From Eukaryota sp. GEM-RC1 (Eukaryota), in assembly GCA_040285855.1 (NCBI GenBank), contig JAUFOQ010000016.1:1860001-1924000 (forward strand): a DNA stretch of 64,000 bases, given 5' to 3'. The notes below the pieces were generated by a model. The model was given only the letters and a program-made list of their open reading frames with translations, was not told the DNA's origin and ran no database searches. A program made the translations under genes and the position numbers. Position 1 is the stretch's first letter; every line of letters starts with the position of its first letter. This document shows, piece after piece, positions 5,411 to 60,379 of this stretch.

Positions 5411-6410
5411 AGAATTCCTGTTGGTGTAACAGAAATTCAGCAGAGAAGCATTTTCTCTTTGCCTTTGTGTGTTCGCAAGTTACAGAAGAAGTTTGTTTTG
5501 TTTCACGAAAGCTTGGACTTTAAAAACCGTATTAGCTTGGCTAAGACTAAGAGTCCCGCTTTTTGTGCATTTTTGAATGATATTTCTTCAAGCGCTGCGT
5601 CTTCATTTGTTTCTCGTTTGCCAAGAATTTTTTGTTTTAATCTTAAGGATCATGAATGGCTTATAAACATGAGACTTAGGTTAGGTTTATGGCCTTCAGG
5701 TCTTTTGAAGCATTCTCCATGTCTTTGTGGTCGTTCAAAGGCTTCAAATTTTCATCATTTAGTTAACTGCCATCAATTTATTCATTTTCGATCAATAATC
5801 CACAACAGTATCCGGGATACATGTTTGGATATGTTTAAGGCTAATGGTTTTCATGGAACAATTGAACCTTTACTTGCTAATCTTTCTGATCAGCCAAAAG
5901 TTGATAGAAGTCGTGGTGATTTGATTGGTCCTTGGTTATCTTGTCAGGAAATTATTATGGATTTCACGACTGTTGATCCTTGTAATTCAAGATCAATATC
6001 CAAAATATTTGAAGATGATTTTTCTGCTCTTGAAGTGGCTGAAAAAGGAAAAAATACAAAGTACTGTCACTTAATTAACCAATTGAATGTTGACAGGTAC
6101 AATTCTTTTGTGTTTCAACCTTTTGCGATGTCGATATACGGTAATATTGGACCAGCTGCACAAGGTTTTTTAACCTCCTTTGGTAAATTGTGTTCTGAGT
6201 ATGGTAAAGTTTTCAATGAAAATTTTTGGTTGAGTAGGTTAACGTTTGCGTTGTTTCGTTCAATGCACAGATATTTTAATTCAATTTTAGGTAAGTTGTT
6301 CGGTGATGGACAGAAGGATCATAGTTTAGATACTTTAGTTAGTGTCTGTTAGTTATTAACTTCTGCAAATGCATTTATTTCAATGACTGATCATAAACCC
6401 CGTTTTAATT
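5411..6410 (+). mobile_element. 5'-truncated non-LTR retrotransposon (RLE type, CRE/R2-like C-terminus) with 13-bp TSD
   Basis: ORF 5459-6352 has RLRLG, a CLCG..H...C zinc knuckle, HNSIRD, IEP, RGD..D, AEKGKNTKY and FQPFA...G. Direct repeat TTATTACAGTAGT at 5398-5410 and 6411-6423. Confidence 0.85.
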
Positions 6411-13742: not shown

Positions 13743-13953
13743 AAAAACTGGGTTTATGATCAATCAGTGAAATAAATGCTTTTGCAGAAGTTAATAACTA
13801 ACAGACACTAACTAAAGTATCTAAACTATGATCCTTCTGTCCATCACCGAACAACTTACCTAAAATTGAATTAAAATATCTGTGCATTGAACGAAACAAC
13901 GCAAACGTTAACCTACTCAACCAAAAACTTTCATTGAAAACTTTACCGTACTC
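13743..13953 (-). mobile_element. ~210-bp 3' end fragment of the same non-LTR retrotransposon
   Basis: Near-identical to about 6197-6406 (EYGKVFNE.FWLSRLTFALFRSMHRY...VSVC plus 3' UTR). Confidence 0.9.
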
Positions 13954-30349: not shown

Positions 30350-30628
30350 GGTTCTACTAGTAGTGTGGTAATACACGTCTACTGCATTAAATTCAAATAC
30401 AATCAGTACAACACTCAACAATTTCCATAACACTACTAGCGTCTCCCTTAGAGAAATAGTCATAAATATGACTTCTTTTATTACCAGCAGTTGACATCAA
30501 AAAACAAACACTGGGAAGGGAAATGTGGTGTGCCCACTTTTGTTTTCCCACTGTTTTTCCACCCAACGTTTTTGAAAATACGGGTAATTCATTGCCTCGT
30601 GATGATACTCTAATTTAAATTGCAAAAA

Positions 30629-30702
30629 TGTTTTCGGGGAGGTTCGAACTCCCGACCATCTGTGTGTTAGACAGATATCCTAACCAACTAGACCACGAAA
30701 AC
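30629..30702 (-). tRNA. tRNA-Val(AAC)
   Basis: GTTTTCG...TCTGT-CTAACAC-ACAGA...GGGAG-TTCGAAC-CTCCC-CGAAAAC-A followed by a T-run. Confidence 0.95.
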
Positions 30703-30899
30703 TGCTTAACGACTTTGGTATGAGAATCCAACACATCTTTGCAGAACAATTTTGACCAAAGAAGACAATTGATTTAACACCACTGGAGTTATCTAAGTCT
30801 CACAACTGCCTCCAAAACTGAATCACCTCTACATTACTCAGTGAAAACGATAAGAATACAAACAGTAACAGAAACATAATAAATTGTGTTTATTAAAAC

Positions 30900-32332
30900 C
30901 TACCGTTTTAAAAGAGCAACCCCTGATTCTCCAACAATAACTAAACCACGTTCATCTTGAGTGAAAAAAGTCTGCTTCGGTCTTGATATTCTAACCAAAT
31001 CGACAGAAATTTCAACTTTTTGAGTTGGATCAAAAGGCTTTGTATCTAAAACCCAAATACTTTTGTTACAACAACCAGACATTAAAAACCACTTCTAGAA
31101 CCAGAAACAGAGCTACATTCAAGAGAGACATTTAGTGGAGGATTAGCAGGATTCCGTAGATTCCAGGAGAGAACAACATTAGAAGAATATGAAGCACATA
31201 CCAAGGATCCGTTTTCTAAACAAACAATGTCAGTAATATTTCCATCAGTTACAGATTGTTCAAGAATAGAAACGCACTTCGACTGTTTAATATCAAATAC
31301 TTGAACGTTATTATTTGAATCTCCAATAAATACTAAACTTCCATCCACGTGACACCTAATCACTTTGGGAATCACGTCATCAAGATGATATTCTTTTATG
31401 ATAGACTTGCTCTGAGCATTTAATAGTAAAGCTCTATCGTTTCCAATAACAAGGAAATGAAGAGGAACTACTGTTAAAGAAGATGAACGGAAGTTATCTA
31501 ATTCAAGATCAAAAGGAGATAATGAAATCTGTTCAACAAAGGAATCTGAAATTAATTCGTAATATTTTAAATGTTGAGAAGTAGTGAAGAGCAATCCTGG
31601 TTTAGAAAGTCTGTTCATTGAATGGAAATCTATTGGAGTTCCAATAAAGTCAAAGAAATTCTTGATTTGACCTCCAAATGACGTGAACATCAACTCCTGA
31701 TTGTGAACAAAAGCCAAGTAATCAGAATCAAGTACTTGAGACACGTGTGTAAAAGACGGATTAGGAAGGTCAAAATAAATAGGATCAGCTGTACTAAAAT
31801 CCTTAGCAAAAGGTATTGATGGTCTAGCTTTGATAAGCTTTTTCCTTTCAACAGTCAAAGCCTTGTTGATTGTGATTAATTCTTCATGAAAGTCTATAGT
31901 TGAAGTAGGCTCAGTGATGACGTCAGAGGGCTCAGAAGGTGATTGTAATTGAGCTTTCAGTAAGTCTCTTTCTGACATTAGGTCTTGAATGACTTTCTGG
32001 CTTTGTTGGTTCTTAAATTCCGCTTCTTTTAACTCTTCACGTGCAGTGGCAAGGGAGAGTCGTAGAGAATGAGTTTCAAGAATGAGAGCTTCCCATTCAC
32101 TGTGTAGGTGACCAAGAAGACCAGGAATAGACATGGTATCAGGTTGTCTTGGTTCTGTTAGAGTAGCACTCTTAAGTTCAATTAAGTCATTGGGAGAAAG
32201 AGAAGTGTTGGTAATGGGACAACGCTGGCCAGTTTCATCAAGGTATTTTAGAACAAGTTCACGTTCAAAGACATAACCTGTTGGAGAAACAACAGGGTGT
32301 TTTGGTATTGTGTTGGATATTGAGCAAAACAT
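30900..32332 (-). CDS. PRP19: Pre-mRNA processing factor 19 (U-box, coiled coil, WD40), copy 1; frameshift near 31089
   Basis: MFCSIS...PVVSP.GYVFERELV.KY...CPIT, SIPGLL.....EWEAL.LET..LR. It has GG where copy 2 has GGG. Confidence 0.93.
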
Positions 32333-34024
32333 TTTGTTGGAAGATTCAATTAAATGCCAAGCAAATGCTCAGTTTCTTATTGGTGTCAAGAACGTTGTTT
32401 AGCAGTTATATTGCATCATAAAGGGAAACTACCAGGTGCTGTGTATTGTAGATCTGAAGCAGGTAAGCCAACATTAGATCCATTCTCTGCTCTGTATCTT
32501 GTCTTGTGAGATTGACCATAGCTGTTTGATTCATCGTAATAAGCTTTTATTGTCTCCAACAGAATGTAACTGTGAAGAATCACTGTCATTTGAACAATCC
32601 AAGGACTTTGTTCTTCAATCTCTATGTACTTACTACTCAATGGCTTTAAGTACCATGGAACTTCATTTTGATGTTTATTTTCAGTTGTATCAATCATCAG
32701 TTTATTGCACAGTTATTCATACTGATATTTTGTTATTTCCATTTGTTTTTGTTTCAAAGAAGAGTGTTTACATTTCCACTTCTAGTAGTGATCCTGTTTG
32801 TGACCTTGAGGTGCTCAATAATATCCAACTCTCTTACTGCTTGGAGAAGATGTTAGTTATTTGTTTAGTTACTGATCATGAGGTTGACTTCTTGAGTTTG
32901 AACATTGATGACGTTTTGGAACTTGACAAGGAGTTTGAAGTGGTTTACAAGAGTTAGGTCACGAACTGGTTCAATCAACTGCGTTGTGATTACAGTCTTT
33001 ACCATTCATGTAAGACCATCTGTTTCCAACTCAAGCAACTGTTCTAAATTCTAGAGTACTACTCTAAAGTGATGTTGTCTCAACCACTACTCAGTGTTTA
33101 GAATGAGGGGCTCGGATTTTGAATCATAGTCCTGCTGCTATGACACTGTAGTAGTCTGTATAATCTGATCACTTTCAAAACCTTGTGTAGTTTAGTAATT
33201 TTGATTGAAAATTGAGGTAACAATTACTGGTACGGTGATGTACATAAAGCTTTTTGTTTTACAAACAAAATTTTACTCTGGGTTTTTAGTTCATCGTTTT
33301 TAGGGGAATATGGAAAAACTGGAGAGAAAGACTATTATTAGAAAAACAATCAAATGCTAAAAGACCATCGATTGTGTAGCTACGGTAAACTGACAGCACT
33401 GAATCCTATTTCCAAAATTTAAGTGTATTACAATATGTGTACGAGGCAACCACACAACAAGAAACAAAGGATAAATACAACTATTAAAACAAACTTCCTA
33501 AAGTCGAAACGTAGTTACATGTACCACAACAGCCAAGTAGAAGAACTACTATTTCAGTAGAAAGAGGTCGCAAATGGCTGAAAGTACATATTAATGTGTC
33601 TTTGTGAATTTAAAGTAATTTTCAACTTACGTTTTTTATGATACAGTATGTATTGCTGTGTCCTTCATTTTCCAAGCTTACTTCAATTTCAGAGCAAATC
33701 AGGAGAGCAGTAGTTATCTATACCTTCAGTCAAATACACGTCAAGGAGACTATCATCATCCACGGATTGACTTAAGTAACTACATAAAAGAAGTGTTAGA
33801 TTCTAACACCCCAACTGCTCTAAATAATTGCGTCGCTTAAATTTTTGGTCATGTCATTGCTGTCCACAAAGAGCTGGCATGTCTATAATGCTAGTAATCG
33901 CCAGAAGGTGCTGGTGGATGAACATACAGCTCAACAAAAAGAAAACAATCTTCAAGACACTATTTGAAACAGCGAGCTCAAAAACGACTTAATCGTTTAA
34001 GAAACAAGGCTGGACTGTCTCCAC

Positions 34025-40514: not shown

Positions 40515-41382
40515 AATTATTCTTGTTTTCTAACAATTTCTTGGTCTCAGTAGTGTTTACTTTGAATTTCACGGACTTTTTGTGGACCTCGAAGATTATT
40601 AATTCTGATTATTGCTCTGATTTCCTAGCGAATGGCAAAGGAAAAACTAATATGAAATCACAATTAAACAAGATTGTTTTTATACATTACCTAACCTTCA
40701 TTCTGGCCTAGCAAAATCAAAATTGATCTCACAAGAACGCGACTGAATCCTTGGATGATCTTGGATAAGTTGACAATACAGTTAATAAAGTTGTATCTTT
40801 AGAGAAGCTTCTAAGGTGTATTGTTTCCATATTACTAACTAAAGTCACACTCAACCAAAAATGCCATGATTGAACTAATACATGAGCATGGCTTCCAAAT
40901 TGTACAGATGCAATTAGATCTTTGATATTCGAACGACTTAAAAAAACTTAATTATTCTTGTTTTCTAACAATTTCTTGGTCTCAGTAGTGTTTACTTTGA
41001 ATTTCACGGACTTTTGTGGACCTCGAAGATTATTAATTCTGATTATTGCTCTGATTTCCTAGCGAATGGCAAAGGAAAAACTAATATGAAATCACAATTA
41101 AACAAGATTGTTTTTATACATTACCTAACCTTCATTCTGGCCTAGCAAAATCAAAATTGATCTCACAAGAACGCGACTGAATCCTTGGATGATCTTGGAT
41201 AAGTTGACAATACAGTTAATAAAGTTGTATCTTTAGAGAAGCTTCTAAGGTGTATTGTTTCCATATTACTAACTAAAGTCACACTCAACCAAAAATGCCA
41301 TGATTGAACTAATACATGAGCATGGCTTCCAAATTGTACAGATGCAATTAGATCTTTGATATTCGAACGACTTAAAAAAACT
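40515..41382. repeat. Tandem duplication of a ~434-bp unit
   Basis: 40515-40948 and 40950-41382 appear identical except for a T5/T4 run. Confidence 0.95.
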
Positions 41383-41518
41383 GAAGTTATTAACGAGGAA
41401 GTTTAAACAAACAAAAATGCCATGATTGAACTAATACATGAGCATGGCGGTGTACATGGAGTACATGGCGACCATTTACATCTGTTAATCTGTTCTTCTT
41501 CTGAATTGTCCAGAGAAA

Positions 41519-41845: not shown

Positions 41846-43111
41846 GTGGTGATTTTGATGATTTACATTCAGTTTCCATTCAATTTTAGAAGGTTTTTTA
41901 TCTTAACTATTTTATTCAAAAGAATATACATCCGTGAATGTGGTCAACGCCAATTGAATGTAATGGGTTGTGAATTCGTAATCTTACTCTATGTTTCATA
42001 CAGATACACATTTAAGAAACATTGATTGGTCATATGTTTCATGCATTTCACAACTTCTGTAAGCTGTGGGACTTCCTCTACCAGTAAGAATTATCAATTA
42101 CAATTTGTAACTTGGTCTCTTACATTCTATAGTCTTGGACTTCACATTTGGAGCCCAACACTAACCTTTCTTCTCTTCACACACTTTCCTTCTCAAAATA
42201 CTGTTCATAGCACTTCCTTTCTCCTTCTGTTCTCCTCTTTTGCTTTGATATAAATAAGGGACTACGGCTTTGGTAGAGACGTTGTGCTGGAGGAAGATTC
42301 TGTTGTTGTGGTGATACTCCTTCATGTATCTCAGATATACTTGCTGTCTTGTGTTCCTCATAGCTATCTCTTTCTTTGGTATACTGTATCATCTTGAATG
42401 ACGGCAATTTATCACTGCCTTGTCTTTGAACTCACCAGTATCATCAGTAGAATAGCCCGCCTTTTAGCTTTTATTTCACTTTTTATGAGTCATGACTTTG
42501 TTTTCCGATATTTACGTGGGTGTACAGTGTTCGTGATCAGTTCATGAACCACTGTTCTTCACATGATATATGTAAGATGGTGTTAGACTATGGTACTTTC
42601 AGCACTAGCTATTTATTGAGAATATACATACGTTTACCTAATAAAACGATCACACATATCTGCTATACACAGAGCTTCGATAACTCGGGACTACACACAA
42701 AGGAAATGGAGAAATTGGCTTACCACATAAGAACCCAAGATGGTTGTTATCTAGACATAAGTAGTTTCAAGCAGCCCTTAGGTTTACAAGTAACAAGACT
42801 GACATGTAATGTTTGGCATTGATCATGTCAAAAGTGTATACCAGTTTGAAGGAGTCAGGAGAGTCAAGGATTATGAGTTTGGACACACTATTACAGAGAC
42901 ACTGGAAGGAAAAGACGGATATGAATGCATTTTGATGTGAACAGTCTGTGGGAAAGAGCTGTAAGAAAGTTGTGAAATATGCATTTCAGGTGAAAAGCAC
43001 AGTAGTAGTAGAAGAATATGACAAAATTATTTTCAAGACTTACTTATTTTCATTACATTTGGGAGGGAGGGTGGGTTTCTTCCTCTCGTGTACACCTCTT
43101 TTGAACGTTCT

Positions 43112-43399
43112 CAATGTAGGATGAGTTCCAGCTCTCCTCTCTCTACACCGCTCCAACTGCACCGCTCCAATGTATTGTGGGTTCTTCTGTATCTCCAATT
43201 TCGTTCCGTTCAGACTTCACTAAAGCTTTGATTGCAAAGGGATTGGGGATGAAGTATCCAATGTAGGATGAGTTCCAGCTCTCCTCTCTCTACACCGCTC
43301 CAACTGCACCGCTCCAATGTATTGTGGGTTCTTCTGTATCTCCAATTCCGTTCCGTTCAGACTTCACTAAAGCTTTGATTGCAAAGGGATTGGGGATGA
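43112..43399. repeat. Tandem duplication, 147-bp period
   Basis: 43112-43252 and 43259-43399 are near-identical (one substitution seen). Confidence 0.95.
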
Positions 43400-43543
43400 C
43401 GTAGTTGTAGTTGTAGTTTTATATGTATTTTGACTGGGCCAATGTCTTTTGATTGTTGAGCCTAGTCATGTTGGGTTTTCCTTCTTTATTCGTTTTCACT
43501 GTGTGATTTTGAATTTAGAATGAAAGTCTCAAATAAATACAAC

Positions 43544-48456: not shown

Positions 48457-48705
48457 TGGAAAAATCTTAGTTCTTCTGAATCAATAAATATCCAGATGGA
48501 TCATGTTTTTCTGTCATCTTGCAGAAGATCTACAAACTCCACCAGGACAAGCTAGCACATGTAGTAAAGATTTGGATAAGAACATTCGACAAACAGAAGC
48601 TTGGTGTTGTATCATTTTCAGATGTTGACGCAATGAAACATACTGTAGTTCCTCCATAAACCCAACATACAATAAAATCCACAATATTTCATAAATTTAT
48701 TGAAC

Positions 48706-50504
48706 ATGACTACCACGACCTCCACGGTCACGTGTTCACTTGCCAAGTTTTTTGACCCGCCAGCTCGGGCAGTGATGAACAGGCAATTTCGGTACCTTCG
48801 AGACGTTGCTGTTCAGTCAACTTTACTGGCCCGGGTGTTTGTGCTCCAGCACCCCCACTTAGCACGCTGGTTGACTGACCAGCGTTTCTGGTACCAGTGC
48901 TTTGGGTTCGTTGCTCACTCTGAGCCGAAAGTAAACCGCCCCTTTGAGAACGACAATGGAGTGTACACTGCACTGCATCTGTCGTCGAGTCTTCCGCCAG
49001 TATCCATTTGGCCGTTCCCCCCTCTTGGCCGACACAAACCGACACGCTGGTGTTACTCACAACTCTTGAGTGATAGGTCACGACAGTTGTCTGAAGCTTT
49101 TCAACAACTGATGGCCGATGGTCCAGTCAGTTGGAAGCTGAACTTCTTCCGGACCGCTGCTGTATTCCTCGACTGCCCGACCCCTAAGGGATACGCTTCT
49201 GCTGTTGTACGTGGTGCTCAACCTGGAGCATCACTGCAGCAATGGTGGAATGCTCATCACCAGCAAACTCTGGCCACCTTTAATCACTTAGTCGGGGATG
49301 TTGTCCTGTTCAATAATCTATTGACAGAACGGTCTGTTGCACTCAATGAAACGAACACCTCATTTCTGTTCGCAGCTGGACTGAACCTGTTGTCCGCTCT
49401 CGAGGATGCTGCGCCAGATTGTATGCGCCGCCATGCTCTAGTTCCAATGGCCAGCTATGCTCCAGTGTTTGTATCATTCTCTCAGGAAGTGGAGAGACAC
49501 TTCACAGAGTTCAACTTCTCAAGTACTCTCAAAAGTAACCCACTGAAAACGTTTAGAAAACGCCCCCGTTTCCAGACTTACACCCTGGCCTCTGATGGTG
49601 TAAGTTTGAGGATAACTTTTCCACAAAGCCGAAAAAAACAAGGAATCGCCCTACCAAGGAGCAGTTTGAGTCAAGGAGGGCAAGTGGCTCCGAAGACTTC
49701 AAGGTTAAGTCTCGAAAGAGAAAGTGTAACCTACAGAAGAAAGTGGCTCCGTCACGACGACGTGCGAGAACAGCTGATTTCGAACCTCCTCCTGATGAAG
49801 ATTGGTTATGGTGTGCAATTGATCCCAACCACAGTAACCTATGTGGTTGGTCTATTGGAACCAACACTGACTATTTATTGGACTCTGGTATTACACTGGC
49901 ACCAAAAGCCAAGGCTATCAATACTGTTATGTTTGGTGCTTTGAGCAACTCTACGTCGAACACCTATTCCGTTCAGAACATGTACCTGTATCTGCTCGAG
50001 ATATCGACCACTATTGTTGATCAATATATGAGTAAGAACAGTCTAGAACGGCGTTTATTAAATGGGAACAGGCCCAACCTACGGAGAAACAAGTTCGACT
50101 TCTTCATAAGAAAACAGAAACGATTTGATTTATTTGCTCAAAATTTGAAAAATATGGCACAAGGAAGCCAAATCAGAGTTTGGTTTGGGACAGGAGGTGC
50201 TAGCCCATCTAGGCAGCAAGTGAAGTCTCCAAGAAAGGGATTCCTTCAATATCTCAAAAGATTCTTTCCCGTTATTATGGGCGATGAATACTTCACTTCC
50301 GCAAAAACTAACTGCTGTAAAGTGAGGCATCAGTTGATATATCATGAAGTAGATGGAGTAAGAAGAGTGAATCACGCCATATTTCGATGTCCAACATGTG
50401 CTCAGGTTTGGTCAAGAGATATTTCAGCCTCCAGAAATCAACTTGAGATCGCTATAGAGGGTTACTTATTTGGAACTAGGCCTGAAGCTTTCCAACGTAC
50501 TTAA
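48706..50504 (+). CDS. Fanzor (TnpB-derived RNA-guided endonuclease, Fanzor1-like); one frameshift near 49617-49638
   Basis: SDGVSLRITF (TDG-type motif), RuvC-I AIDP, VWFG, DEYFTS, CC...CPTC, RuvC-III WSRDISASRN and terminal RP.AF.R. Restoring one base gives about 599 aa. Confidence 0.88.
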
Positions 50505-50600
50505 TTATTATCTATGTATTGGCCGATGAAATTCAAGTTACCTTGAATGGAGGCCGTAATGTGGTGCTTCGGCAGAAAAGAGGTGAGTATGAAGAAGCTT
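50505..50600 (+). ncRNA. Candidate Fanzor omegaRNA (scaffold plus guide; boundaries approximate)
   Basis: GGCC(50521)/GGCC(50552) enclose a perfect ATTCAAG-TTAC-CTTGAAT hairpin, followed by TGC-TTCG-GCA (cUUCGg tetraloop, 50565-50574), directly after the stop codon. Confidence 0.6.
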
Positions 50601-50871
50601 TCTTTGAAAGTGTAAAGTATGCATTTCTTGGAAAATCCACAGTAAGTTAATACACTTTGTTTTTTGTGATACTTCGCTTACAAATGATTTAACCAACAGC
50701 ATCTTTACCATTGTATGGGTTAAACCCATGTGAATGGACATCGTTCGTTCTCCTACTTTTAGTAGTAGAGTAATACTGTTACTGTTATTGTACTAGACTA
50801 CTAGAGGTTTATAGCTGACCATCCAAATTTGACAAACAAATTTTTCTTAACATAATTTGACCCTGTCCGAA

Positions 50872-55229: not shown

Positions 55230-56525
55230 ATGCAGCTCTCTCTTAAACACGGCCGTGACATACAAAGTGTTACTGTATCTCCAACAGATACTGTTGAATC
55301 ACTCAAACAACAGATCTATTCCATTTTCTCGGTTCCTCCTGAAAATCAGAAATTGATCGGAAAAGGTGGAATGATCAGGAAGGATACAGCCTCTCTATCT
55401 GAAATCAACTTGACCGAAAACTCCACAATCACAGTCATTGGTAGTGCCCAGCCAAAACCTATCTTCTCTTCAGAAAAGCCTCTTTTGTTGAAGATATCCC
55501 TCAATCTCAGTCCCAATCACTTATCCAAGTCCCAGCACGTGGTTTAACCAATCTAGGTAATACTTGTTACTTATCCTCGGTATTACAACTTCTTGTACGT
55601 ATTCCTCACCTCACTACTTCTCTAAAGAACGCCCCTTCGTTACCTCCCTTGATAACCACACTTCGTGACACTCTCTCTCAAATATCTTCTTCTGGATCAG
55701 CTGTTTCTCCTTTTGCTTTGATCTCTGCCTTTCGATCTTGCTATCCCCAGTTCGCTGAAAGAACTGAGCAAGGTTTCTACGCTCAACAAGATGCTGAAGA
55801 AGCAATCTCTTCCTTGATTGCTAGTATCCGTGACCTACCCACCATCCCTAACGTTCCTCGTCTCACTGCTTCTTCATCTCATCCCCCTCTTACAAACCTC
55901 TCTCATCAACTGTTTGGAATGGAGATGGCAGGGAAAATGACAAACATTGGCAATGAGGCGGAAGTCATTGAAGTACCACCTCAAATCATAACTAGTATTA
56001 AAGTTACAATCTCTCCTGAAGATGACTATATGGAACAAGCAGTAGGAAGCTTTTTGAATGGAACTGTGGAGAAGAGAAGTGACTTGACTGGAGAAAACTC
56101 TTTGTTTTCCATTCAGAACCAATTCACGTCATTATCACCCTATCTTTTTGTGTCGTTTGTAAGGTTCGAGTGGAGACAGGATATCTCTCAACGAGTTAAA
56201 ATATTAAAAAAACTAACATTCCCCTTCAGTTTCGATCCAGTTGACTTTTTGTACAGATGAGCTCAAACAGGTTATCCATTCTAGAAGAGAACTGAGTCCT
56301 ACAGCAGCTACTTATGAGTTGACTGGAGTCGTTGCTCATGTCGGCCGCAGTGCTTCTGGAGGTCATTACATGGCTTGGACTAAGGTGCAAAGTGAAGAGA
56401 AGACAGAGTGGGTGCACTTTGATGATGCAAAGGTAGCTGTGGTCAAGGAGGAGAAGATTAAAGAGTTGGTGGGTGGAGGTGATCAACCAATTGCCTACAT
56501 TTTGTTGTATAGACTGTGTGTATAA
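55230..56525 (+). CDS. USP14: Proteasome-associated deubiquitinase USP14/Ubp6; about three frameshifts
   Basis: Ubl domain (VPPENQKL), Cys box GLTNLGNTCYL near 55541, QQDAEE, His box H.GRSASGGHY and FDD. Confidence 0.9.
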
Positions 56526-57979
56526 GTGTTCAGTGAATAAATAGCAGTTTTCAGTCAAATGTTTGTTTAAAGAATCTCACGTTTTACTTTAATCCTAATT
56601 ACAAATGTATACAGTGAGATTCACGTTGACTGCTTCTAAAAACGGATTATGAAGACAAATTTTTTTAAAATAATCATAATCCAAAACTAAAAGAAACAGA
56701 TCCAGTGAGATTAATTGATTAAAAGAATTGATTAAAAATGTTTCTTAACAGATATACACATTTTATACACAAACTGTATTTACAGTGTAATACGATACTC
56801 GAATAATGTGAATACAACAGTCAATTTAAGATATCCAAAACAAAAACTCTCCCATCAACTTAACTGGAGCCTAAAGAAGCAGTTTCCAAGTCTACTGATT
56901 AAGGGTAAGGCTCATCAGGATCTAATGCTTCATAATCCGACCACTCATCACCAGAGTGAATAAAATGTACAAGAGTTTGCGGTGATTCAATGTCACTCAA
57001 ATTCACTGGAGATCCTGGTTGAACAACTGTTGACCAAGGCTCTTGAAAAGAGATGACGTCATCGTTGGAGTTGATAACGTGTTCTGATTAATAGAAGAAG
57101 GTATCAGAGGACTTTCAAAGATCAAATCTGACTTAAGAATAGGCATTTGTAATATGTAGTTGGAAAAAAGAGACAAAATAATAATTACTACTGTTGCATC
57201 AATTACTAAGTTTAAATTAGTAAATTTAGTAATTTGATCGCAAACTTAGTAAAGTCAGTAGTCCGTTCTAATCATAAACAATCCTGATTCGTTTCAAATA
57301 ATTAAACTTGAAAATTTCACACAAATCAGTCAGTAGCATGTGTGTGATTAAACCTAACTCTTGTAAACCACTTCAAACTCCTTGTCAAGTTCCAAAACGT
57401 CATCAATGTTCAAACTCAGGAAGTCAACCTCATGATCAGTAACCAAACAAATCACTAACATCTTCTCCAAGCAGTAAGAGAGCTGGATATTATTGAGCAC
57501 CTCAAGGTCACAAACAGGATCACTACTAGAAGTGGAAATGTAAACACTCTTCTTTGGAAACAAAAACAAATGGAAATAACAAAATATCAGTATGAATAAC
57601 TGTGCAATAAACTGATGATTGATACAACTGAAAATAAACATCAAAATGAAGTTCCATGGTACTTAAAGCCATTGAGTAGTAAGTACATAGAGATTGAAGA
57701 ACAAAGTCCTTGGATTGTTCAAATGACAGTGATTCTTCACAGTTACACTCTGTTGGAGACAATAAAAGCTTATTACGATGAATCAAACAGCTGTGGTCAA
57801 TCTCACAAAGCAAGATACAGAGCAGAGAATGGATTTAATGTTGGCTTACCTGCTTCAGATCTACAATACACAGCACCTGGTAGTTTCCCTTTATGATGCA
57901 ATATAACTGCTAAACAACGTTCTTGACACCAATAAGAAACTGAGCTTTTACTGGGCATTTAATTGAATCTTCCAACAAA

Positions 57980-59413
57980 ATGTTTTGCTCAATATCCAAC
58001 ACAATACCAAAACACCCTGTTGTTTCTCCAACAGGTTATGTCTTTGAACGTGAACTTGTTCTAAAATACCTTGATGAAACTGGCCAGCGTTGTCCCATTA
58101 CCAACACTTCTCTTTCTCCCAATGACTTAATTGAACTGAAGAGTTCTACTCTAACAGAACCAAGACAACCTGATACCATGTCCATTCCTGGTCTTCTTGG
58201 TCACCTACACAGCGAATGGGAAGCTCTCATTCTTGAAACTCATTCTCTACGACTCTCTCTTGCTACTGCACGTGAAGAGTTAAAAGAAGCGGAATTTAAG
58301 AACCAACAAAGCCAGAATGTCATTCAAGACCTAATGTCAGAAAGAGACTTACTCAAAGCGCAATTACAATCACCTTCTGAGCCCTCTGACGTCATCACTG
58401 AGCCTGCTTCAACTATAGACTTTCATGAAGAATTAATCACAATCAATAAGGCTTTGACTGTTGAAAGGAAAAAGCTTATTAAAGCTAGGCCATCAATACC
58501 TTTTGCTAAGGACTTTAGTAAAGTTGATCCTATTTATTTTGACCTTCCTAATCCGTCTTTTACACACTTGTCTCAAGTACTTGATTCGGATTACTTGGCT
58601 TTTGTTCACAATCAGGAGCTGATGTTCACGTCATTTGGAGGTCAAATCAAGAATTCCTTTGACTTTATTGGAACTCCAATAGATTTTCATTCAATGAACA
58701 GACTTTCTAAACCAGGATTGCTCTTCACTACTTCTCAAAGTTTAACATATTACGAATTAATTTCAGATTCCTTTGTTGAACAGATTTCATTATCTCCTTT
58801 TGATCTTGAATTAGATAACTTCCTTTCAGCTTCTTTAACAGTAGTTCCTCTTCATTTCCTTGTTATTGGAAATGATAGAGCTTTACTATTAAATGCTCAG
58901 AGCAAGTCTATCATAAAAGAATATCATCTTGATGACGTGATTCCCAAAGTTATTAGATGTCATGTTGATGGAAGTTTAGTATTTATTGGAGATTCAAATA
59001 ATAACGTTCAAGTATTTGATATTAAACAGTCGAAGTGTGTTTCTATTCTTGAACAATCTGTAACTGATGGAAATATTACTGACATTGTTTGTTTAGAAAA
59101 CGGATCCTTGGTATGTGCATCATATTCTTCTAATGTTGTTCTCTCTTGGAATCTACGGAATCCTGCTAATCCTCCACTAAATGTCTCTCTTGAATGTAGC
59201 TTTGTTTCTGGTTCTAGAACTGGGTTTTTGATGTCAGGTTGTTGTAACAAGAGTATTTGGGTTTTAGATACAAAGCCTTTTGATCCAGCTCAAAAAGTTG
59301 AAATTTCTGTTGATTTGGTTAGAATATCAAGACCAAAACAGACTTTTTTCACTCAAGATGAATGTGGATTAGTTATTGTTGGAGAATCAGCGGTTGCTCT
59401 TTTGAAACGGTAG
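57980..59413 (+). CDS. PRP19: Pre-mRNA processing factor 19, copy 2 (intact, 477 aa)
   Basis: Same motifs as copy 1, in an uninterrupted frame. Confidence 0.93.
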   Translation: MFCSISNTIPKHPVVSPTGYVFERELVLKYLDETGQRCPITNTSLSPNDLIELKSSTLTEPRQPDTMSIPGLLGHLHSEWEALILETHSLRLSLATAREELKEAEFKNQQSQNVIQDLMSERDLLKAQLQSPSEPSDVITEPASTIDFHEELITINKALTVERKKLIKARPSIPFAKDFSKVDPIYFDLPNPSFTHLSQVLDSDYLAFVHNQELMFTSFGGQIKNSFDFIGTPIDFHSMNRLSKPGLLFTTSQSLTYYELISDSFVEQISLSPFDLELDNFLSASLTVVPLHFLVIGNDRALLLNAQSKSIIKEYHLDDVIPKVIRCHVDGSLVFIGDSNNNVQVFDIKQSKCVSILEQSVTDGNITDIVCLENGSLVCASYSSNVVLSWNLRNPANPPLNVSLECSFVSGSRTGFLMSGCCNKSIWVLDTKPFDPAQKVEISVDLVRISRPKQTFFTQDECGLVIVGESAVALLKR

Positions 59414-59611
59414 GTTTTAATAAACACAATTAGTTATGTTTCTGTTACTGTTTGTATTCTTATCGTCTTCACTGAAGAATGTAGAGGGGATTCAGTTTTG
59501 GAGGCAGTTGTGACACTTAGATAGCTCCAGTGGTGTCAAATCAATTGTCTTCTTTAGTATAACATTGATGTGCAAAGATGTGTTGGATTCTCAACCATAA
59601 GCAACTAAGAA

Positions 59612-59684
59612 GTTTTCGTGGTCTAGTTGGTTAGGATATCTGTCTAACACACAGATGGTCGGGAGTTCGAACCTCCCGAAAACA
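59612..59684 (+). tRNA. tRNA-Val(AAC), copy 2
   Basis: Identical to 30629-30702 except one C missing in the C-run at the T-stem/acceptor junction. Confidence 0.9.
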
Positions 59685-60379
59685 TTTTTTGTTTATGAAA
59701 GATGTTGACGTTCTGACAATGAGATGATTAGGACGTTATTGTAACATTAAAACTAACATTATCTTTCATTGGACAGTGTCCAATAAATTGTTTTGATACT
59801 AATAGAAATATTTGATGAGAGAACGATTGACATGAATATTGTTTTCCTCTTGCATTTTACAGCACCTTGATGCCAGTTTGAATCACATCTCTGTGAACCG
59901 ATACATGAATTTGAGATGGTTTAGTAATTCATCAATGAGTATTTTTCTGCAGTGTGTAGAACAAAATTGACATAGGAATTGTTTATGTGTTGAAGCGACT
60001 GCACAACAATGAACCAATATCATACGGCTATTAAAACAAATTGATATCAGATAATCAACAAAACATTACAGTAAAGTAATTGAAAAGGGGGCATTAAGGT
60101 CAAAATCCATATCTAAAACTTTTACAAAAACAGAAACTAAATACAAGTACTGCAATGGCTGCCCAAATCTACTGAATAGTTACTCCCATATAACTTGGCC
60201 TAAATCCCGTCAAAATAGCGGTATACATGTCTACGCTTATTTATTTCATAACATCAATTATTTCGTTAGGTATTGTTTTACTCGGTGGCATGGGATTTTG
60301 TTGCAATTTCAGAGAGTTTTCAATTATAGAGGTTGCAATTGGAGAGAGTTTACTGTCTAGTAATTGTTTTAAACCCGAA

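Follow-up and report, generated by a model that had tools for sequence, protein, structure and literature searches.

In the published description of SpuFz1, the Fanzor1 of Spizellomyces punctatus, the RNA is a 75-nt two-stem scaffold that lies after the stop codon and ahead of the inverted repeat, in which scaffold C6 pairs with loop G20 and a pseudoknot is lacking (PMC10432273). Fanzor1 RNAs as a group are reported to have three stems and no pseudoknot, with the terminal inverted repeat (TIR) and the target-site duplication (TSD) included in the RNA; the pseudoknot of TnpB and Fanzor2 reRNAs is reported to join an apical loop to the bases flanking the guide (PMC10711439). According to the structural report on three solved Fz1 RNAs, SL1 consists of seven pairs and the remainder varies, PpFz1 having a four-pair SL2 and an RNA of 75 nt (PMC11423790). 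The protein signature described for Fanzor1 comprises a DPG-type RuvC-I, a glutamate relocated to a position before the zinc finger, and the RuvC-III aspartate (PMC10711439). A long TSD without a TIR is known in the Fanzor1 elements MCi-2 and CRe-1 to -3 (PMC3627910), and Fanzor RNAs may sit far downstream of the gene (PMC10530073).

We analysed a stretch of 64,000 nt of Eukaryota sp. GEM-RC1 (hereafter, the window), of which positions 50505–50600 had been flagged in an initial annotation as a candidate omegaRNA directly downstream of a Fanzor stop codon. The following features were identified in the gene that ends at this stop:

48706–49638 (+): 5' half of the Fanzor1 gene (REC/WED region), 45% identity to relative P0001 over 246 aa by tblastn
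49591–49599 (+): SDG, a variant of the Fanzor1 TDG motif, from motif position
49632–49638 (+): run of seven A (A7), site of a frame shift, from comparison with relatives
49639–50504 (+): 3' half of the Fanzor1 gene, including RuvC, zinc finger and stop; fold model with pLDDT 87
49821, 50286 and 50418 (+): RuvC residues D (DPN), E (DEY) and D (RDI)
50313 and 50388 (+): zinc finger, CC and CPTC
50478 (+): RPEAF motif
50502–50504 (+): Fanzor stop codon

As judged from its motifs and from fold models, the gene upstream of the flagged stretch is a near-intact Fanzor1. The D-E-D triad, which is conserved in relatives, and the zinc-finger cysteines are all intact, and the gene carries the Fanzor1 RuvC signature, namely the DPG-type RuvC-I, the relocated glutamate and the RuvC-III aspartate. 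It also shows the enlarged REC and the TDG motif in WED (here SDG, at 49591), and its closest fold is Fz1. The best fold match for the 3'-half model was SpuFz1 (E 1e-9), and for both this model and that of the full-length relative P0004 (pLDDT 90), SpuFz1 and PpFz1 ranked first, above Fanzor2 and TnpB. Profile A6, in which distant relatives dominate, matched SpuFz1 at E 1e-54, whereas a single-protein search gave no SpuFz1-type match. No in-frame stop was present in the approximately 600 codons of the gene (two frames, 48706–50504). The GC content was 52% in 48709–49600 and 42% in 49640–50504, compared with approximately 37% for the host.

The only frameshift in the gene lies at A7, where the relatives P0129, P0003 and P0004 are colinear and unbroken. 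It is likely to be a homopolymer error of the assembly, because other genes show such breaks too: the USP14-like host gene, at a distance of 5 kb, is shifted in frame twice, both times in a T-run, and one of the two copies of Prp19 is frameshifted in a G-run. A programmed −1 frameshift at 49600–49638 was ruled out, as relatives read across in one frame, and so was a 29-nt intron at the same position, which would remove the conserved strand after SDG. The USP14-like gene (55230–56525) is read in three frames, with its breaks in T-runs a sign of homopolymer errors in the assembly, and the Prp19 gene region is duplicated in inverted orientation at 30624–32959 and 57352–59689, with 96% identity.

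A search with the 3' half detected 106 proteins at E ≤ 0.001, the best eight with 42–60% identity. The best ten matches, when looked up, were all from Eukaryota sp. TZLM1-RC, TZLM3-RCL or GEM-RC1, which are classed in the literature as skoliomonad metamonads. The relatives are multi-copy, with clusters of up to 14 members, and many of them are fragments. No related loci were found in metagenome contigs, viral contigs or prokaryote genomes, viral scans with the queries P0042, P0033 and A8 gave no match, and a full-text search found no published account of this metamonad Fanzor1 family, although supplementary Fanzor catalogues may list its proteins. The window itself holds a second Fanzor relic (41845–41570 on the − strand, and 40515–41391), which covers the N-terminal ~90 codons only, is 40% identical to the Fanzor1 gene and is followed by a 435-bp tandem duplication; its 3' end was looked for in the window and not found. 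Positions 42100–43100 contain reading frames that are degenerate and have no Pfam match, on either strand, and 43112–43403 is a 145-bp tandem duplication.

Downstream of the gene, folding analysis gave three candidate structures:

50521–50555 (+): nested stem, GGCC/GGCC around a 7-bp hairpin at 50531–50548 (loop UUAC), candidate SL1
50565–50574 (+): 3-bp cUUCGg hairpin (50565–67/50572–74), pair probability 0–0.3
50578–50629 (+): third predicted stem, with an 8-bp outer and a 6-bp inner part (50597–50611), candidate terminal stem

The motifs listed in the initial annotation were all located correctly (GGCC at 50521–24 and 50552–55, GTAA at 50556–59, CTTCGG at 50567–72 and GAAAAGAG at 50575–82), and the perfect 7-bp stem 50531–37/50542–48 with its loop TTAC (50538–41) was confirmed in the sequence. 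The nested stem was robust, appearing in all eight folding contexts containing it with pair probabilities of 0.97–0.98 for the 7-bp stem and 0.82–1.0 for GGCC. The 7-bp hairpin is the only perfect hairpin of at least 7 bp between 49851 and 50824; the 64 kb hold 45 of them, so that such a hairpin would fall no further than ~60 nt from the stop by chance in approximately 4% of cases. On the coding strand, 50505–50600 folded at z −1.58, a value matched by 10 of 200 shuffles; for the opposite strand the z-score was −3.24. The best 60-nt part, 50500–50559 (z −2.95), ranked 169th among the 6394 60-nt windows of the 64 kb. The nested hairpin is thus real as a predicted fold, and the stability of the flagged 96 nt is only modest. 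Rfam gave no significant match for the flagged stretch (three matches, E 3.4–7.1), and the exact 16-mer of the hairpin had 93 matches in viral contigs, none beside a Fanzor and with flanks at chance level.

The other parts of the proposed RNA fared differently. The cUUCGg tetraloop hairpin is not supported as a firm element: it has just three pairs with probabilities of 0.0–0.3, and its bases pair more often with 50480–88 or 50580–84. A pseudoknot between the TTAC loop and GTAA had also been suggested. The complement is present, yet 17% of the 4-mers in the window have a complement within the next 40 nt; moreover, the pairing would take up all four loop bases, and its partner strand would begin 0 nt after the GGCC helix. 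Pairing every base of a 4-nt loop is sterically implausible. For this reason, and because Fanzor1 RNAs are reported without a pseudoknot, we rejected it. The scaffold end placed at 50575–50585 is doubtful, since the predicted structure continues to ~50630, beside a 10-bp direct repeat, and the stem predicted at 50578–50629 takes up the bases put forward as the guide.

As a yardstick, we fetched 35 giant-virus Fanzor1 loci and, after dropping six duplicates, examined 29, which belong to a few related subfamilies. In 26 of the 29 loci, a hairpin of seven pairs, preceded by a leader that contains C and with CG as the last bases of its loop, was found 29–130 nt after the RP motif, and the SL1 helix covaried in 7 of 7 pairs (9 sequences). 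The viral elements ended 113–231 nt after RP, with scaffolds of 83–122 nt; the automatic call of the end was corrected for L096 and L098 and is doubtful for L113 and L124. Nineteen viral ends folded at z −0.3 to −5.7 (median −3.63), six of them weaker than −2. The viral right ends often overlap the last 20–30 codons.

Measured against these loci, the flagged hairpin fits in position, starting 27 nt after the stop and 53 nt after RP, and it has the seven pairs of SL1 (50531–50548) and a loop that begins with UUA. It lacks the leader C and the loop CG, which also occur in SpuFz1 and PpFz1 and are common yet not universal (GtFz1 and 3 of the 29 viral loci deviate). An SL1 scorer trained on 19 viral loci gave the flagged hairpin at most 0.4, against 16.6–24.7 for the training loci. 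Two covariance models did not detect it; this is weak evidence, because the models also score poorly across viral subfamilies, giving other subfamilies only 10–16 bits or missing them. The candidate scaffold folds at z −1.3 to −2.4, weaker than the viral median, which counts against it. The proposal of an omegaRNA right after the Fanzor stop is supported as to the gene, the position and the 7-bp hairpin, and unsupported as to the pseudoknot, the UUCG hairpin and the end at 50575–85. The omegaRNA reading is supported by the identity of the upstream gene as a Fanzor1, as Fanzor1 omegaRNAs are reported to come from this position (PMC10432273), in agreement with the 29 viral loci. An omegaRNA very probably lies somewhere in 50470–50830, and the flagged hairpin is probably part of it.

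The reading that we prefer, with a probability of roughly 0.45, is that the flagged stretch forms the 5' part of the omegaRNA scaffold, with the 7-bp hairpin as SL1, no pseudoknot and an end near 50631. The boundary in this proposal would consist of the terminal stem 50578–50629 and an element end at ~50631, giving a three-stem scaffold of ~110 nt. It is linked to a direct repeat:

50632–50641 (+): right 10-bp copy, candidate target-site duplication or guide start
48674–48683 (+): left 10-bp copy, overlapping an AATAAA and 22 nt upstream of the start codon

The third stem ends 2 nt before the right copy. Its pair probability was 0.79–0.94 in three of the four contexts containing it and 0.05 in the longest, a loss that counts against the 50631 boundary; its inclusion shifted z from −1.1/−1.4 to −2.3/−2.4. 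The distance from RP to the ~50631 end, 153 nt, and the scaffold length of 108 nt both lie within the viral ranges and count for this end, as does the agreement of the three-stem shape and of a TSD inside the scaffold with the Fanzor1 description (PMC10711439). The flagged stretch does not use host codons, which counts for a non-coding scaffold. The direct repeat itself was not significant, an equal match occurring in 13% of 333 control stretches (p 0.13–0.28), and no terminal inverted repeats of the element were found (best inverted repeat p 0.72–0.77). When 48684–50641 was removed in silico, the upstream AATAAA came to be followed by a U-rich tract (0.5% of background; post hoc). This empty-site argument is weak because AATAAA was seen at just 7 of the 29 ORF ends of the host. 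Nine candidate guides were compared with the rest of the window, and the best match, 13/15, was uninformative.

If the locus works as SpuFz1, GtFz1 and PpFz1 do, transcription would continue past the element end and the transcript would be trimmed to a small RNA, SL1 would dock on the RuvC/TNB surface and the terminal stem would sit against WED. The ~15 nt that follow, derived from flanking host DNA, would guide cleavage of element-free alleles beside a TAM; the guide would start at 50632, or at 50642 if the duplication belongs to the scaffold.

Several other candidate ends and flanks were rejected. A TA-flanked TIR at 48643/50642, an inverted repeat at 48668/50772 and a match of 50606–44 to 42965–43004, taken as a TIR (p 0.1) or a coding relic (p 0.05), were not significant. 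A host gene split by the element was discarded, as neither flank peptide has homologs and downstream codon use is non-host. A 210-bp repeat (6197/13744) considered as a ghost element appears by eye to be a LINE 3' fragment (folding z 0.04); this fragment, which we take to be of the restriction-like-endonuclease LINE type, occupies 5669–6406 (+), and 13744–13953 (−) is a 5'-truncated copy of 210 bp with 97% identity. Between MetRS and the Fanzor gene, an open frame of 59 codons at 48480–48659 (+) contains a loop that resembles an EF-hand (match at E 0.077 in Pfam and 0.88 in the Atlas) and is followed by AATAAA. No homologs of this frame were found, and it may be a small host gene marking the left boundary.

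A more compact RNA, with SL1 and a short terminal stem formed either by the UUCG hairpin or by a helix of 50480–88 with 50566–73, would end at ~50574 and take its guide from 50575–50590; we consider this unlikely. In the helix version, the stem would close a GtFz1-like multiloop beginning in the last codons. Both the four-pair SL2 and 75-nt RNA of PpFz1 and the 75-nt scaffold of SpuFz1 directly after the stop, as reported, are precedents for such a form, and a weak hairpin could be stabilized by protein binding. The closing helix of 50480–50488 with the cUUCGg strand had a probability of 0.99–1.0 when folding started at 50460–50478 (z −2.0), but only 0.01–0.12 in longer contexts, and the UUCG hairpin stays at 0–0.3. 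The guide would moreover pair into 50578–50629, the z-score of 50505–50575 is only −1.28, the RP-to-end distance of 96 nt is below every measured viral end (at least 113), and no end signature is present at ~50574.

Similarly improbable is that the omegaRNA lies further downstream, in the following module:

50655–50808 (+): hairpin 50663–50684 (loop TACTTCG), then hairpins 50714–30, 50732–50 and 50757–806

Here, 50663–50684 would be SL1, the hairpins to 50808 would complete a GtFz1-sized RNA of ~150 nt, the guide would start from ~50809, and the flagged hairpin would belong to the 3' UTR or serve as an accessory extension on the 5' side. The loop TACTTCG, with the conserved CG as its last bases, is identical to that of the viral locus L109, and the hairpin has the best SL1 score near the gene, ranking 17th of 127,940 positions; this score, 10.5, is nevertheless below that of all training loci, and the leader C is absent. 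A refined descriptor matched three places in 128 kb, of which the two outside this module belong to a single LINE repeat, but it was chosen after the match had been seen, and the descriptor fixed beforehand expects 0.09–0.6 chance matches per 400 nt. The segment 50706–50808 folds at z −3.03, the best of nine segments tried, although the SL1 register has a probability of only 0–0.27 and the covariance models give 3.2 bits. A location far downstream is known for Fanzor RNAs (PMC10530073), but the distance from RP, 185 nt, exceeds the viral range, and the candidate inverted repeat 48668–88/50772–92 is not significant.

Less likely than either of these is a lineage with a rewired guide RNA, or a structured tail of ~300 nt (50512–50810) forming one RNA, in a TIR-less element; the whole tail folds at z −2.45, with 3 of 200 shuffles as good. 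A locus with no functional RNA appears just as doubtful. It would be a decaying or 3'-truncated copy whose hairpins arose by chance in flanking DNA or in a relic frame (50486–50647), in keeping with the modest z-scores, the many comparable hairpins in the window, the absent SL1 signature, the frameshifted gene and the many fragmentary relatives. Against this, the triad and zinc finger are intact, no stops are present, the frameshift resembles an assembly error and the tail folds better than most shuffles. The relic frame matches 42972–43004 in 9 of 11 aa, but this is not significant (p 0.05–0.1), and the frame has non-host codon use and no Pfam, Atlas or homolog match.

This locus adds a divergent, catalytically intact Fanzor1 family, with 42–60% identity to skoliomonad proteins and ~20% to the solved Fanzor1s. 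Such divergent families are candidate compact genome editors, and this one tests the range of variation permitted in the Fanzor1 RNA core. Under the less likely reading of a rewired guide RNA, it would represent a divergent multi-copy Fanzor1 lineage of anaerobic metamonads that moves without terminal inverted repeats, and its SL1 would have lost the leader-C/loop-G contact, which is retained close to the active site in other Fanzor1 RNAs. The overall design is already published, and the find is an ordinary one unless the RNA proves to lack this conserved SL1 contact. Separately, the covarying 7-bp viral SL1, with its TCA leader, loop CG and GGTGTAAA-type end, is usable as a detector of Fanzor1 SL1.

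Finally, we compared the locus with the known systems. For an element with a 10-bp duplication that lacks inverted repeats, MCi-2 and CRe-1 to -3 are a reported precedent (PMC3627910); no transposase or Helitron end was identified at the window element, and its repeat is not significant. With the reRNAs of TnpB and Fanzor2, as described, the candidate shares an origin from the 3' end of the element, but their pseudoknot uses guide-adjacent bases, whereas TTAC and GTAA would pair in the middle of the scaffold, and the window protein is a Fanzor1 (PMC10711439). The right ends of the giant-virus loci (L094–L128) resemble the window in the spacing from RP to the first hairpin and to the end, and in scaffold size; the flagged stretch has neither their TCA leader, nor the CG that closes their loop, nor their sharp end of the GGTGTAAA type. 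The omegaRNAs of PpFz1 and GtFz1 showed no sequence similarity to the flagged stretch by eye (Table S3), while a 7-bp SL1 is common to both and to the window hairpin; as described, the short SL2 of PpFz1 and the several stems and ORF-end overlap of GtFz1 are models for the rival boundaries (PMC11423790). SpuFz1 (PMC10432273; PDB 8GKH/9CEY) differs in its sequence, with ~20% identity to the window gene, in its 30-nt inverted repeats, of which none were found in the window element, and in its SL1, which has the loop UURUCG and a UCC leader, compared with the loop UUAC and no UCC leader in the window hairpin, whose RNA is only predicted. It is like the window locus, as far as described, in its DPN and DE..TS catalytic motifs, in an ORF that ends just after RPExF, and in a non-coding tail whose first hairpin has 7 bp and which lacks a pseudoknot.
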